Shown here: in pieces, positions 23,269-59,286 of the stretch
Layout: every line of letters begins with the position of its first letter
How positions within the stretch are numbered: the first letter of the stretch is position 1
Source of the DNA: a virus
Length of the DNA: 64,000 nt
Strand: one strand, 5' to 3'
IMG/VR virus record: IMGVR_UViG_3300025151_000022
Location: 24,236-88,235 of that record
Notes under the pieces: model-generated
Told to the model about the DNA's origin: nothing
What the model saw: the letters and a program-made list of their open reading frames with translations, nothing else
Databases searched by the model: none
Program-made: the position numbers and the translations under genes

Positions 23269-24921
23269 CTAGGTTAAAGTACTACCATAATCTTCAATTT
23301 TTATATAACCATAATCATTATTACCACCAACAGTTGAAGAAATTATAGTAATTTCTCCGTTAGAATATCCAGATCCACCTCCACCACCGGATCCATCTGA
23401 TAATGCCGCTGATCCACCTTCAACTCCAGCGCCACCACCTCCTTGATTTCCACTACCATTACCACCGTTTCTTCTAAAATTTCCTCCTGCTTTATAACCC
23501 CTATCTATCTGTGCAGTTTGTGCAATCTCAGTTCCACTAGAGTTTCTATACTTTATATTACCTAAGTTTTGACATTGAGAATATCCTTGATTCGCCCAGT
23601 AATCACCTACAGTACATGTTGAAAGTTTTCCTCCAACTATATTATTTGAATTATTGCTATACGATGTAGTGTTATTAAAGTTCACTGTTTTTGCATACGA
23701 TCCAACGTCATCTAATACACCAATATTAAATCTTACTCCTCCATTTCCACCATTTCTTCCTACACCATCTTCTCCAGCAAGATTTACTCCACCACCATCA
23801 CCACCTCTATTATTTTGTCCGCCACCGCCACCTCCGCCGCAGACTGCAACTAAGTTTGCTCTTCTATGAAAAATGGATGCTCCTCCCCCACCAACAACTC
23901 CACCAAAATCATTACTGCCGCCAACTGAATATGGAACGCCAAGTCTAATGAAGTATTCTTCATCTTGATTTAAAGTTAATCGGAAAGAAGATAATCCACC
24001 CTCACCACCACGATTTCCATTTTTAGTATCGCCCTTAGAACCACCCAAAGTAATAAGAACATCAACATCTTTCTCTGTTGGATATATTACAACAGATCTT
24101 TCGTCAGAGTCATTTGCGTCAAATTCTAAGAATCCTTGATTGACTAAATCTTTAACTCCTCCACCATTCCAAGAAGAATCTACTAGTTCATATGCAAGTA
24201 TAGACCTTGCAGAAACAACATTTAATAATATGTCATTACTTACTACTTGAGAAGGTATTGCGTTTGGATTTGATACTGTGCAATTTACAAGATAAGTTCC
24301 AATGCCAAGATTTTGCCCATCAATGTCCCCTGTCGTAACTGTATATGTTGTTGATTGATCACCACTAGCATATGCAGGTTCATTTATGATTTGCCCATCA
24401 ATTCTCCATTGATATGATAATGCACTATCATCCGTGATAGTTGCAGATACATTAAATGTTGCATTTTGGTTTTCTGCAGTAGTTACTGTAGTCGCAGCAA
24501 CAGATACTCCTATTTCGGGTGCAGTAATTACAATAGCTACATCAGAATTTTTCGGATCTACTACTGCATTTCCAGTTGTTCCATTTGCATATGCTGAAGG
24601 AATATAGTCTGCACGAAGAAAAAATTGATCTTGGGCGTTGTTGGGGTTTAGAAGATTTGTGACCGTAAGACTTGTAGTTGCTGATCCAACTACGTTATTA
24701 CTATCGATTAAAGGTCCGCTATTGTTATACCACTGATAAACAATTGATCCAGTATTTGATGATCTCTCTGTTTGCCCCTCTGGAAATATTGCAGTAGCAA
24801 ATCCAGATAGTGTTACAGAACCTCGATGGTTTGTCGTAAGTCCGACAGGATTTTCGGTGAAGACTATCGTTGGACCATTAAGATCCAACGTTGTGTTTAC
24901 TTTGGGGAATAACTCACTCAT
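23269..24921 (-). CDS. Ig-like plus glycine-rich domain protein (gp38-adhesin-like tip protein)
   Basis: 550 aa; two Ig-type YQW modules followed by many GGGGG/GGxGG runs; ATGA overlap with the upstream fibre gene. Confidence 0.65.
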   Translation of the reverse strand: MSELFPKVNTTLDLNGPTIVFTENPVGLTTNHRGSVTLSGFATAIFPEGQTERSSNTGSIVYQWYNNSGPLIDSNNVVGSATTSLTVTNLLNPNNAQDQFFLRADYIPSAYANGTTGNAVVDPKNSDVAIVITAPEIGVSVAATTVTTAENQNATFNVSATITDDSALSYQWRIDGQIINEPAYASGDQSTTYTVTTGDIDGQNLGIGTYLVNCTVSNPNAIPSQVVSNDILLNVVSARSILAYELVDSSWNGGGVKDLVNQGFLEFDANDSDERSVVIYPTEKDVDVLITLGGSKGDTKNGNRGGEGGLSSFRLTLNQDEEYFIRLGVPYSVGGSNDFGGVVGGGGASIFHRRANLVAVCGGGGGGGQNNRGGDGGGVNLAGEDGVGRNGGNGGVRFNIGVLDDVGSYAKTVNFNNTTSYSNNSNNIVGGKLSTCTVGDYWANQGYSQCQNLGNIKYRNSSGTEIAQTAQIDRGYKAGGNFRRNGGNGSGNQGGGGAGVEGGSAALSDGSGGGGGSGYSNGEITIISSTVGGNNDYGYIKIEDYGSTLT

Positions 24922-57482: not shown

Positions 57483-57511
57483 ATTATAGACAAAAAAAGA
57501 GGACTCGTCAA
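57483..57511 (-). promoter_or_regulatory. Host sigma70-type promoter overlapping a terminator
   Basis: TTGACG-N17-TATAAT; the -35 box sits in the terminator loop. Confidence 0.7.
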
Positions 57512-57522
57512 GAGTCCTCTTT
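57492..57522 (-). terminator. Rho-independent terminator closing the riboswitch/YRG-peptide unit
   Basis: AAAGAGGACTC-TTGAC-GAGTCCTC-TTTTTTT. Confidence 0.85.
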
Positions 57523-57672
57523 GATCTTCCAGATTTTATCACTTCGTGATTTTAAATCTATCCATTTGGCATAATGTACACCACGATAAGTTAAAAATCC
57601 GAAGACTTTATCTGGATCGTGTTTCGATGGATCGTAGTCTGGAAGGTCATATTCAAATCTGACCTTCAGCAT
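57508..57672 (-). CDS. YRG-motif (DUF4278-like) small protein, 54 aa
   Basis: Not in the track; GAGGAG SD; MLKVRFEYDLPDYDPSKHDPDKVFGFLTYRGVHYAKW... Confidence 0.7.
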   Translation of the reverse strand: MLKVRFEYDLPDYDPSKHDPDKVFGFLTYRGVHYAKWIDLKSRSDKIWKIKEDS

Positions 57673-57681
57673 TTTTTCTCC

Positions 57682-57780
57682 TCAACTTATTTTTTTGAGA
57701 AGTAATAATTCACCGTACAATAAAAAAATAAATGCTGCACTAAAAAGGGAACCTAATCCCGCTACTTGAAGTGCTTGCAT
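57682..57780 (-). CDS. Small hydrophobic (single-TM) peptide, 32 aa
   Basis: MQALQVAGLGSLFSAAFIFLLYGELLLLKKIS; GAGGA SD; this is the 3' part of track ORF 57682..57924. Confidence 0.55.
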   Translation of the reverse strand: MQALQVAGLGSLFSAAFIFLLYGELLLLKKIS

Positions 57781-57787
57781 AATATCC

Positions 57788-57955
57788 TCACTTAGCGTAA
57801 GGTGTACCACGATAGCAGAAAACACCGTGGGTGTCTTTTGCTTCGAAGCAACGAGTATCATACTCAACACCACGATATGAGGTGTGCATGATTTGTGCGT
57901 CGTGAAGGGCAGATGCTTTTTCAATCTGCTTCTTGATGAGAGTTAAGGTGTTCAT
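57788..57955 (-). CDS. DUF4278-like small protein with two YRG motifs, 55 aa
   Basis: Not in the track; AGGAG SD; MNTLTLIKKQIEKASALHDAQIMHTSYRGVEYDTRCFEAKDTHGVFCYRGTPYAK. Confidence 0.8.
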   Translation of the reverse strand: MNTLTLIKKQIEKASALHDAQIMHTSYRGVEYDTRCFEAKDTHGVFCYRGTPYAK

Positions 57956-58012
57956 TTGTTTTCTCCTGAAGTGGGTGATTAACCTTCTCTGCTTTCGCAG
58001 GATCCGTTTCCC

Positions 58013-58191
58013 CGTTCCTTCAGTCGTTTGCGTCCCAGTAACACTCAGGCACAGAGTCCTTTACTGTCTCAACAAGTTCTAGCACCACTGCTGGTGGTAG
58101 ATCTTTGTGCTTGGCAATCCGAAGCATTAAAGCATCGGCTTCTTGACAATTGAGTGCTGTGTAGAGTAATAGCTCAACCATGGGATGAACG
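58013..58191 (-). ncRNA. Glutamine-riboswitch-like aptamer 2 (glnA/Downstream-peptide class) with an ORF in the P2 loop
   Basis: CGTTC-ATCCCA...TGGGAC-GCAAA-CGACTGAAG-GAACG; P1 CGUUC/GAACG, P2 UCCCA/UGGGA; upstream of a YRG-peptide gene. Confidence 0.7.
58020..58181 (-). CDS. Small two-Cys protein encoded inside aptamer 2 (53 aa)
   Basis: Not in the track; MVELLLYTALNCQEADALMLRIAKHKDLPPAVVLELVETVKDSVPECYWDAND; the last codons overlap the aptamer 3' strand. Confidence 0.65.
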   Translation of the reverse strand: MVELLLYTALNCQEADALMLRIAKHKDLPPAVVLELVETVKDSVPECYWDAND

Positions 58192-58194
58192 CTC

Positions 58195-58425
58195 CGTTCC
58201 GCGACTTACTTGCGTCCTTAGGTAAATGTACTGTTGCATTGACCTTCAACTTTTGATCTGAAATAACCTATGAGATTGTACTTCGATCGTTGATCGATGT
58301 CGTCCCTCATTTGAGTTTCAACTCTAAGTTGTAAGAACCTTTCACAAGACATATGCCACCCATAGGGTGACGGATCGTGATGGGCTAAGGTGAAAGCCAA
58401 CAGTAAAGAAACCATTGGATGAACG
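58195..58425 (-). ncRNA. Glutamine-riboswitch-like aptamer 1 with an ORF in the P2 loop
   Basis: CGTTC-ATCC...GGAC-GCAAGTAAGTCGCG-GAACG; begins about 7 nt after the -10 box. Confidence 0.65.
58218..58415 (-). CDS. Small two-Cys protein encoded inside aptamer 1 (65 aa)
   Basis: Track ORF; ATG directly follows CGTTCATCCA and TAA directly precedes GGACGCA; hydrophobic N-terminus. Confidence 0.7.
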   Translation of the reverse strand: MVSLLLAFTLAHHDPSPYGWHMSCERFLQLRVETQMRDDIDQRSKYNLIGYFRSKVEGQCNSTFT

Positions 58426-58432
58426 TAGGTCT

Positions 58433-58461
58433 AGTATAGACCTTATGTTCTATATAGTCAA
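58433..58461 (-). promoter_or_regulatory. Host sigma70-type promoter of the riboswitch unit
   Basis: TTGACT-N17-TATACT. Confidence 0.75.
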
Positions 58462-58468
58462 GTTTATA

Positions 58469-58484
58469 TGTATCTCTTGATACA
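58469..58484. promoter_or_regulatory. Putative NtcA binding site
   Basis: TGTATC-TCTT-GATACA fits TGTA-N8-TACA with 6-bp perfect arms, 7 nt upstream of the -35 box. Confidence 0.65.
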
Positions 58485-58982: not shown

Positions 58983-59286
58983 GTTGCCTCCAATCATCAG
59001 GTTTATCGCGTTGGAACCAGTCAACTATTTCATCAGCACCATCGAACCCCGTTCTATGATTAGATGGGTCGGGGTCGCCTAATCCCATCTTATTCATAAA
59101 ATCATCAATACTGCCCTCCTCAATCCCATTGGACTGACGACGTGCTTTGTTCAACCAATCCCTAGCAGTAGTATGAGCTTTGGCAAGTTTCTCTGCCCAG
59201 ATCATATCCTCTAGTTTTACTTCTTCGTTATTAGCAATCTTTTTACAGATGAATTCTAGTCGTAGCCTGTATTGAGTTGAAAGCAT
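58975..59286 (-). CDS. Conserved cyanophage hypothetical protein
   Basis: MLSTQYRLRLEFICKKI...MIWAEKLAKA...LGDPDPSNH...DDWRQRD. Confidence 0.75.
   Translation of the reverse strand: MLSTQYRLRLEFICKKIANNEEVKLEDMIWAEKLAKAHTTARDWLNKARRQSNGIEEGSIDDFMNKMGLGDPDPSNHRTGFDGADEIVDWFQRDKPDDWRQRD

Follow-up and report, generated by a model that had tools for sequence, protein, structure and literature searches.

Our analysis concerns the leader of a small operon in the genome of a marine cyanophage (IMG/VR record IMGVR_UViG_3300025151_000022), of which positions 24,236 to 88,235 were studied, a stretch of 64,000 nucleotides (nt) that we refer to as the window. On the minus strand, from 58425 to 58013, two small open reading frames (ORF1 and ORF2) lie between short strands that resemble those of glutamine riboswitches, and the gene for a YRG peptide follows. 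An initial annotation, made from the sequence alone, had described this region as two tandem glutamine-riboswitch-like aptamers, each carrying a gene in the loop of its P2 helix. The motifs that it reported were all found on the minus strand with the letters and positions claimed, and a script check confirmed that all of the helices proposed here consist of canonical pairs at the window coordinates. The leader contains the following elements.

58421..58425, minus strand: strand a, CGUUC, the 5' strand of the proposed outer P1, followed by the conserved A 58420; CGTTC in every locus where this strand was located
58417..58419, minus strand: 5' strand of P2, UCC, which pairs with GGA 58217-58215
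58218..58415, minus strand: ORF1, 65 amino acids, ATG at 58415-58413, in the P2 loop
58220-58195, minus strand: TAA-GGA-CGCAAGTAAGTCGCG-GAACG, as read from the sequence
58207..58217, minus strand: 3' strand of P2, GGA, and junction CGCAAGUA with the AGUA strand of loop E (58210-58207); aligns to the Rfam Glutamine consensus GaCGGAAGUA in gene-free alleles
58202..58206, minus strand: 5' strand of P3, AGUCG, which pairs with CGACU 58026-58022
58187..58199, minus strand: inner hairpin of strand b (GAACG), loop GAG (58194-58192) and strand c (CGUUC); b and c covary, and the hairpin is in the centroid fold
58191-58179, minus strand: CGTTC-A-TCCC-ATG, as read from the sequence
58181..58185, minus strand: 5' strand of the inner P2-like arm, UCCCA, its last A being the A of the ORF2 AUG; pairs with UGGGA 58037-58033
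58020..58181, minus strand: ORF2, 53 amino acids, in the inner P2-like arm
58013..58032, minus strand: junction CGCAAA, 3' strand of P3 CGACU (58026-58022), loop-E strand GAAG (58021-58018) and strand d GAACG (58017-58013), the 3' strand of the proposed outer P1

The extension of P2 that had been claimed is present in the window: beyond UCC/GGA, GGU 58412-58410 pairs with ACC 58223-58221 across an AAU/UAA internal loop containing the ORF1 start and stop codons. The four P1-like strands are named a, b, c and d in order of occurrence; a tandem arrangement pairs a with b and c with d, and a nested arrangement pairs a with d and b with c.

The same flanking strands were found in 415 cyanomyovirus records in a comparison of phage regions. 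At least 240 viral-contig loci were fetched by the two conserved 3' strands, and 148 distinct loci were parsed, comprising the fetched viral contigs (among the matches listed), four phage records and the window. The flanking strands are nearly invariant across these loci while the enclosed ORFs diverge to about 65-70% identity, a shared pattern that is far beyond chance. Strand d is GAACG in all 121 loci where it was found and is followed by G in 119 of 120; the first base of the inner loop is G in 147 of 147 loci, and the loop-E strand GAAG is replaced by AAAG in about 40%. Among cellular genomes the 3' strand pattern of the second unit was matched only five times, and the hosts gave no sign of the nested gene form, the five contigs not having been examined further.

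The distance between the two strands of each arm is bimodal, with first arms of 12-47 nt or about 200 nt and second arms of 12-27 nt or 140-192 nt. The 148 loci divide as follows.

Short first arm, gene in second arm: 67 loci
Gene in both arms (the window type): 28 loci
Short in both arms: 10 loci
Gene in first arm, short second arm: 1 locus
Incompletely sampled: 42 loci

All four combinations of presence and absence thus occur among the aligned relatives, and there are natural alleles in which the same strands close short hairpins instead of genes; the first unit of phage S-SM2, for example, has the compact hairpin form with identical flanking strands. Gene-bearing inner arms are the majority, accounting for 110 of the 121 that could be scored.

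The inner hairpin loop can also be occupied. In the Synechococcus phage Sf-CH5 (L251, 567-1169) an annotated homing-endonuclease gene of 573 nt lies within this loop, flanked by GGAACG-GAG on one side and CGTTCA on the other, and CGTT is partially repeated at its left edge; this phage thus has genes in all three peripheral loops. A homing-endonuclease gene or its remnants are found in the same loop at five further loci (L076, L114, L180, L197 and L230). Another locus (L143) carries, about 20-70 nt past the last GGAACG, ACUGAAGGAAAC, a hairpin and then another CGTTCATCCCATC; this extra stretch could represent either a third unit or an expression platform that has been rearranged.

Pairing topology and family assignment

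We propose that the leader, of about 413-415 nt, forms a single three-way junction of the glutamine-I type, with P3 continuing into a second core that is circularly permuted, and we estimate the probability of this reading at about 0.7. The outer core would be built from P1 (58425-21 with 58017-13), P2 (UCC/GGA) around ORF1, the AGUA and GAAG strands of loop E, and P3 (AGUCG/CGACU). The permuted core inside P3 would consist of the hairpin GAACG-GAG-CGUUC, a single A, the UCCCA/UGGGA arm around ORF2 and then ACGCAAA.

Natural variation in the inner strands bears directly on the topology. Strands b and c read GAACG/CGTTC in 139 of 147 loci and CAACG/CGTTG in the remaining eight, with no mixed combination (141, 7 and 0 of 148 loci in a recount with another de-duplication). 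The outer strands stay CGUUC/GAACG in all eight variant loci. The change therefore leaves b fully paired with c and places a C.C mismatch and a G.G mismatch in the tandem helices a.b and c.d at each of the eight loci. In the glutamine-II structure the binding site is formed from the CGUUC/GAACG helix, and C5:G36, the equivalent of the pair that is flipped between b and c, is one of two helix pairs that are not highly conserved (PMC6698751).

The distribution of the loop-E strands points in the same direction. The initial description needs amending in one detail: the first unit alone contains AGUA and the second alone a separate GAA(G), which leaves neither with both, and it is only in the nested reading that the two flank P3 at a three-way junction. 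The complementary 5-mers AGUCG and CGACU form this P3 and are left unpaired in the tandem model. Constrained minimum energies for the window RNA are -115.3 kcal/mol for the nested fold and -112.8 kcal/mol for the tandem fold, compared with -116.6 kcal/mol unconstrained; the tandem fold is thus 2.5 kcal/mol worse, and 7 kcal/mol worse when the bare helices are compared. The b.c hairpin is seen in the centroid fold of the window leader.

Gene-free natural alleles of other phages served as a short-loop comparison for covariance-model scoring with the Rfam Glutamine model (RF01739; gathering score 35 bits) and the Glutamine-II model (RF01704; cut-off 33 bits). Five of seven gene-poor loci align to RF01739 as one aptamer across both units, at 43.6, 43.6, 42.9, 40.3 and 38.4 bits, and the only alignments above 35 bits in the seven loci are those that span both units. 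The aligned parts are CGUUCA, P2 and ACGCAAGUA from the first unit, the P3 stem AGU...ACU, and GAAGGAACG from the second. The defining features of RF01739, namely P1 as CGUUC/GAACG, P2 after CGUUCA with a closing U-A pair to the A of ACG, and a loop E flanking P3, are present in the window in the nested reading. Single units reach only 26-31 bits against the Rfam glutamine models: the first unit of S-SM2 gives full-model matches of 29.8 bits to Glutamine-II (E 1.6e-5) and 28.5 bits to Glutamine (E 3.5e-4), and the second unit alone scores 30.9 and 30.1 bits against Glutamine at two other loci (L040 and L023). The nested alignment gains 8-15 bits over single units, despite an insert of 38-48 nt. 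The initial identification of glutamine-riboswitch strands is borne out by these gene-free alleles, which carry the same strands and pass the Glutamine threshold; the proposal of two independent aptamers with a P1 each is opposed by the eight b/c variants, the threshold scores obtained only in the nested alignment, the split loop E and the P3 5-mers.

Identity with the Glutamine-II pseudoknot was considered and ruled out. Its pairing corresponds to a.b, which has a C.C mismatch in all eight CAACG/CGUUG loci while b.c is intact, and scores against the model lie mostly below 33 bits (25.9-29.8, with one of 34.0 at L033). The only match to RF01704 in the viral record is partial (11 bits, E 0.18; window 59041-59065, minus strand), covers the 3' part of the model within an ORF of 103 amino acids, and is probably due to chance. 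Other weak Rfam matches in the window (freshwater-2, DUF3800-IX and others, E 4.5-8.2) were set aside as chance or as matches to a Shine-Dalgarno sequence only.

Pairing is maintained across the embedded genes. A shuffle control supports this in both arms: at positions 3-7, 106 of 135 cells are paired in the first arm compared with 91.1 +/- 3.6 in shuffles, and 208 of 275 in the second compared with 182 +/- 4.2, values reached by 0 of 5000 shuffles in either case. The initial claim that genes sit inside normally short hairpins, and that P2 still pairs around them, is upheld. Of 32 loci with gene-bearing first arms, 20 have C-G and 12 have U-A at position 3 of P2, so that all 32 are paired. First-arm ends of the types TCCTATG/CATAGGA, TCTTATG/CATAAGA and TCTCATG/CATGAGA pair the start codon with the last sense codon, which means that the ORF1 stop codon (TAG, TAA or TGA) covaries with the 5' strand. 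In the inner arm positions 1 to 4 are paired in 84, 84, 84 and 83 of 84 gene-bearing loci, with C-G, U-A, U-G and A-U all found at position 4. The ten natural alleles in which both arms are short are 99.6% paired in the nested structure, with six pairs changed on both sides and a covariation score reached by 0 of 500 shuffles. The covariation looked for in P1 and P2 when relatives were aligned is accordingly present in P2 and in the inner b.c helix; the outer P1 is invariant and shows none within it.

Embedded genes and their boundaries

Both embedded ORFs are real protein genes according to the selection seen in their sequences. ORF1 belongs to phrog_6471 (E 6.5e-30) and ORF2 to phrog_504 (E 3.9e-25). 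Differences among homologues at the first, second and third codon positions number 9311, 7198 and 14854 for ORF1 and 36122, 17783 and 48043 for ORF2, and are concentrated at third positions in both. All of the embedded ORFs parsed (31 in first arms, 110 in second arms) have a hydrophobic N-terminus followed by two cysteines, never more or fewer, with 34-40 residues between them; the spacing is 36 in 30 of the 31 ORF1 homologues. Conservation of the embedded genes, which the initial annotation had made a test of its proposal, is thus evident in the third-position excess, the two cysteines and the PHROG families.

AlphaFold2 predicts a helical hairpin for each protein, with a mean predicted local distance difference test score (pLDDT) of 74.7 for ORF1, whose helices span residues 24-36 and 42-54, and 77.4 for ORF2. 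A comparison of the two families with hhalign aligns cysteine to cysteine at a probability of 65.6% (E 5.8e-5), and the families are therefore probably distant paralogues. A large protein collection yielded 54 homologues of each, 108 in total, all unnamed or hypothetical. Pfam gave nothing meaningful for either protein, the two PHROG families have no assigned function, and a Foldseek search with ORF1, the only one of the two submitted, found no match in the PDB at E <= 0.001.

The boundaries of these genes are tied to the RNA strands. Among first-arm genes 24 of 31, and among second-arm genes 103 of 110, have 4 nt between CGUUCA and the ATG. For 28 of 31 loci the ORF1 stop falls within the 3' strand of P2 and ends 1-2 nt short of the A of ACG; two others read on to a UAA within AAGUAAGU. 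The ORF2 stop is a UGA or UAA within CGACU[G/A]AAGG in 107 of 110 loci. As claimed initially, the ORF2 tail TGG GAC GCA AAC GAC TGA runs through GGGACGCAAACGACTGAAGGAACG, ending at 58013, and is dual-coded, the last codons GAC GCA AAC GAC UGA also supplying bases of the aptamer core. Over the last six codons third positions are invariant in 61 distinct sequences, two of the six positions being forced by the parsing pattern, compared with 21-66% non-majority bases at codons 2-12. A subfamily of first-arm genes (L021, L077, L083 and L092) ends in ...GRK-stop, with GGA CGC AAG UAA running through the junction and the loop-E strand, so that core bases are dual-coded in both arms.

The inner loop also differs with the presence of its gene. 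The last G of strand b and the loop together read GGAG, 10 nt before the ORF2 AUG, and a loop of GAG(C) is present in 103 of 110 gene-bearing loci compared with 0 of 10 short-arm loci (Fisher p = 1.7e-10).

Expression platform and a model of the switch

The control elements around the leader are as follows.

58433..58461, minus strand: sigma-70-type promoter-like site, TTGACT-17-TATACT, 10 of 12 matches
58470..58483, minus strand: GTA-N8-TAC box (GTATCAAGAGATAC), a perfect match just upstream of the -35 hexamer
57963..57971, minus strand: expression platform, CUUCAG 57971-57966 overlapping the Shine-Dalgarno sequence AGGAG 57967-57963; complementary to CUGAAG 58023-58018 of the aptamer
57788..57955, minus strand: YRG peptide gene, 55 amino acids, DUF4278-like, phrog_545 (E 2e-32); Pfam DUF4278 23.5 bits, E 7.3e-5

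The same promoter layout is found in S-SM2, in S-CAM1 and in many viral contigs. The DUF4278/YRG gene anticipated downstream is present, with a Pfam score just under the cut-off.

The platform provides an alternative partner for the aptamer. The two stretches follow the patterns CU[R]AAG and YUU[Y]AG: all 45 loci with A at R have U as the partner, those with G have C (40 loci) or U (22 loci), and the combination A.C is absent (Fisher p = 1.3e-13, with no correction for kinship). R is also the middle base of the ORF2 stop codon. Pairing of CU[R]AAG with YUU[Y]AG-GAG is found in 107 of the 111 loci with a Shine-Dalgarno sequence; the other four lack such a stretch, and nine further loci have no recognisable Shine-Dalgarno sequence. 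In cyanobacteria glutamine riboswitches lie upstream of DUF4278 genes and act as ON switches, the proposed effect of glutamine being to open a duplex that inhibits the ribosome binding site (PMC6212724). The pairing found here matches this published model.

Two side observations concern the same region. The lowest-energy structure predicted for the leader joins its 5'-terminal GUUCAU (58420-58425, minus strand) to the AUGAAC with which the YRG gene begins (57950-57955); a start of ATGAAC is common to many, not all, related YRG genes, and the pairing could be chance or an extra pairing of the OFF state. The spacer 57976-58012 (minus strand) contains a GNRA hairpin, CUGC-GAAA-GCAG, followed by a second GAAGG; the hairpin is found in a subset of phages only, and its stem covaries (CAGC/GCUG, CAUC/GAUG, CACCC/GGGU).

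Our comparative data, coupled with the analogy to the cyanobacterial switches, suggest a model for the activity of this leader. The early-type promoter at 58461-58433 would drive an mRNA that begins with the aptamer, and CUGAAG would pair either within the folded sensor or with CUUCAG over the Shine-Dalgarno sequence of the YRG gene. Glutamine would stabilise the outer P1 and loop E, thus freeing this Shine-Dalgarno sequence and turning the gene on. Initiation on ORF1 and ORF2 needs the 5' strands of P1 and P2 to be single-stranded, and termination covers the 3' strands; folded sensor and ribosomes would thus be mutually exclusive, and it is this geometry that suggests a competition between translation and ligand-dependent folding. 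The glutamine-bound fold would be expected to lower initiation on ORF1 and ORF2, and a ribosome terminating ORF2 may open the helix that masks the Shine-Dalgarno sequence (the anti-SD helix), coupling translation of ORF2 to that of the YRG gene.

A more elaborate version of this model can be offered only tentatively, and taken as a whole the odds are against it. It describes a reciprocal nitrogen switch with two glutamine sites that ribosomes can reset, in which both cores would bind glutamine and be coupled via the shared P3. The bound fold would bury the starts of ORF1 and ORF2 and expose the Shine-Dalgarno sequence of the downstream gene, which is IF17-like in this version, so that at high glutamine the two-cysteine proteins would be off and the YRG peptide on. 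Each ribosome finishing ORF2 would unfold the sensor and briefly open the downstream gene, and the peripheral loops would serve as insertion sites for paralogous small genes and for a homing endonuclease.

Alternative readings and related systems

The alternative that survives best accepts the nested riboswitch and lets it control the YRG gene only; the embedded genes would lodge in tolerant loops and be translated regardless of glutamine, with sensing confined to ribosome-free copies of the RNA. The loops are indeed dispensable, as the presence of all four arm combinations shows, and ORF1 is patchy, 8 of 18 ORF1 loci having a nearest downstream-region neighbour that lacks it. The annotated endonuclease gene in the third loop of Sf-CH5 fits this picture, and flush packing in compact phage genomes could by itself explain codons that abut stems. 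We nevertheless consider it unlikely. Start and stop codons are fixed to the helices in the high proportions given above for both arms, and GGAG is built into the inner loop only when ORF2 is present. Furthermore, ribosome footprints must unfold P1, P2, P3 and the anti-SD helix, and some coupling is therefore physically unavoidable, which argues for coupling without showing a regulatory role.

Two independent glutamine aptamers, each with its own P1 and a gene in its P2 loop, would allow pseudo-cooperative control, and the four strands permit a.b together with c.d in 139 of 147 loci. Each unit alone matches the Rfam glutamine models over their full length at sub-threshold scores (28.5-30.9 bits in S-SM2, L040 and L023), and in one review 157 doublet and 4 triplet glutamine riboswitches are classed as tandem (PMC9481103). 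The mismatches in every variant locus beside a perfect inner hairpin, the absence of GAA(G) from the first unit and AGUA from the second, the lack of a role for AGUCG/CGACU, and the better score and energy of the nested arrangement make this quite improbable. That gene insertion destroyed the riboswitch and left its flanks as recombination or homing sites or as translation signals (the window has no Rfam match, its P2 is just 3 bp by the junction, and a homing-endonuclease gene uses the region in some phages) is barely credible, given that core strands are equally invariant in gene-bearing and gene-free loci, that synonymous positions in the ORF2 tail are frozen, that P2 covaries across genes and the platform with its aptamer strand, and that the gene-bearing forms are the majority.

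Several points weigh against the nested glutamine-I reading itself. The window has no match to RF01739 or RF01704 at gathering or permissive (E up to 10) thresholds, and the whole viral record has none to RF01739; this decides nothing, because loops of about 200 nt are too long for a 53-position model to span (the P2 loop is 198 nt in the window compared with about 4 nt in the Rfam consensus, and the second gene loop is about 170 nt). The family assignment is drawn from the identical strands in gene-free alleles of other phages, and the outer P1 is deduced from the exclusion of a.b and c.d, the Rfam alignment and the folding energy. The outer P1 and P3 are almost invariant and neither has yielded a pair changed on both strands; P3 stays paired in its variants (GGUCG, CGGCU and CGAUU) through G.U only. 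The b/c variants comprise seven or eight loci and may share one ancestor, and since both pairings are possible in 139 of 147 loci the tandem and nested forms could interconvert. The window's P2 has a mere 3 bp beside the junction. In nearest-neighbour folding the aptamer is not the minimum-energy structure, either in a short allele (L015, of a type about 81 nt long; z -1.28) or in the window leader (z -1.99). The shuffle and Fisher tests treat loci as unrelated, ignoring kinship. The conserved blocks, short-arm alleles included, are also represented in contigs from RNA libraries (4 runs, 4 studies), which are no evidence of expression, being assembled and carrying neither strand nor end information. 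The transcription start, 1-2 nt before the first CGUUC, is a prediction, and the DUF4278 score of 23.5 bits falls just below the Pfam cut-off of 25.3.

The accepted picture of a riboswitch aptamer is that of a compact module, non-coding and about 50-200 nt long, and the models used to find such aptamers assume short loops. Group I introns have endonuclease ORFs looped out of peripheral helices. The leader resembles these introns in that a conserved RNA core tolerates genes in its peripheral loops and that translation into the core can disturb folding; it differs in being a riboswitch rather than a ribozyme, and its usual residents are small two-cysteine proteins and not endonucleases. A further parallel is mgtL in the Mg2+-sensing mgtA leader of Salmonella, an ORF in a sensing leader whose translation decides the RNA structure (PMC6460261); mgtL is a short ORF for a regulatory peptide, whereas the genes here have 53-66 codons, are under protein-level selection and lie in the loops of aptamer helices.

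Among glutamine riboswitches the leader is closest to glutamine-I (glnA RNA, RF01739), represented by the leader of Synechocystis gifB/IF17 (PMC6212724). Common to both, in the nested reading, are a three-way junction having P1 as CGUUC/GAACG and P2 after CGUUCA, loop-E strands ACG-AAGUA and GAAG on either side of P3, a DUF4278 gene that follows, and a 3' strand with an alternative partner at the ribosome binding site. Here, however, a 65-codon gene occupies the P2 loop, the P3 loop is a permuted core with a 53-codon gene, the whole spans about 413 nt compared with about 60, part of the core is read as codons and a stop, and standard covariance scans miss it. Glutamine-II (RF01704) shares the ligand-site strands and the G after GAACG, as for the long-range C:G pair of its structure (PMC6698751), and it too is associated with DUF4278 peptides, in marine picocyanobacteria. 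It forms an H-type pseudoknot by pairing its 5' CGUUC to a GAACG that lies in the loop of a hairpin further downstream, and the equivalent pairing a.b is broken in the variants.

The catalogued tandem glutamine riboswitches likewise have two CGUUCA...ACGCA...GGAACG sets in one leader, and the accessible sections of the review that lists them mention neither nested pairing nor genes inside aptamers (PMC9481103). The phage RNAs described here would probably be counted as doublets by sequence; they differ from such doublets in that their covariation favours pairing of first strand with last and middle with middle, together with one P3 in common and one split loop E. Some of the glutamine riboswitches catalogued as tandem may be interlocked. 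Our literature search, which did not cover subscription journals, turned up no account either of genes within a glutamine aptamer or of such nesting.

If the nested reading holds, a validated ligand class exists in a form of about 413 nt, with helices built around conserved genes, core bases shared with codons, and two interfolded cores. The layout is common (415 phage records, with at least one embedded gene in most parsed loci) yet invisible to Rfam scans. It would offer a natural test system for translation and ligand sensing on one RNA and for opposite regulation of the genes inside a sensor and downstream of it.

A second nitrogen signal may act on the same operon. The GTA-N8-TAC box, which we take to be NtcA-type, is present in the 75 nt that precede the first strand at 77 of 123 loci, compared with about 0.04 expected per locus, and is mostly centred 46-54 nt upstream of that strand. 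This suggests transcriptional nitrogen control on top of the riboswitch, and an early operon of this kind would be tied to the nitrogen status of the host through both 2-oxoglutarate and glutamine signals. Beyond the YRG gene the operon continues on the minus strand with a hydrophobic ORF of 32 amino acids (57780..57682) and a second YRG-like ORF of 54 amino acids (57672..57508; phrog_6192), and it ends in a strong terminator-like hairpin (57522-57496) that overlaps a promoter-like site (57511-57483).

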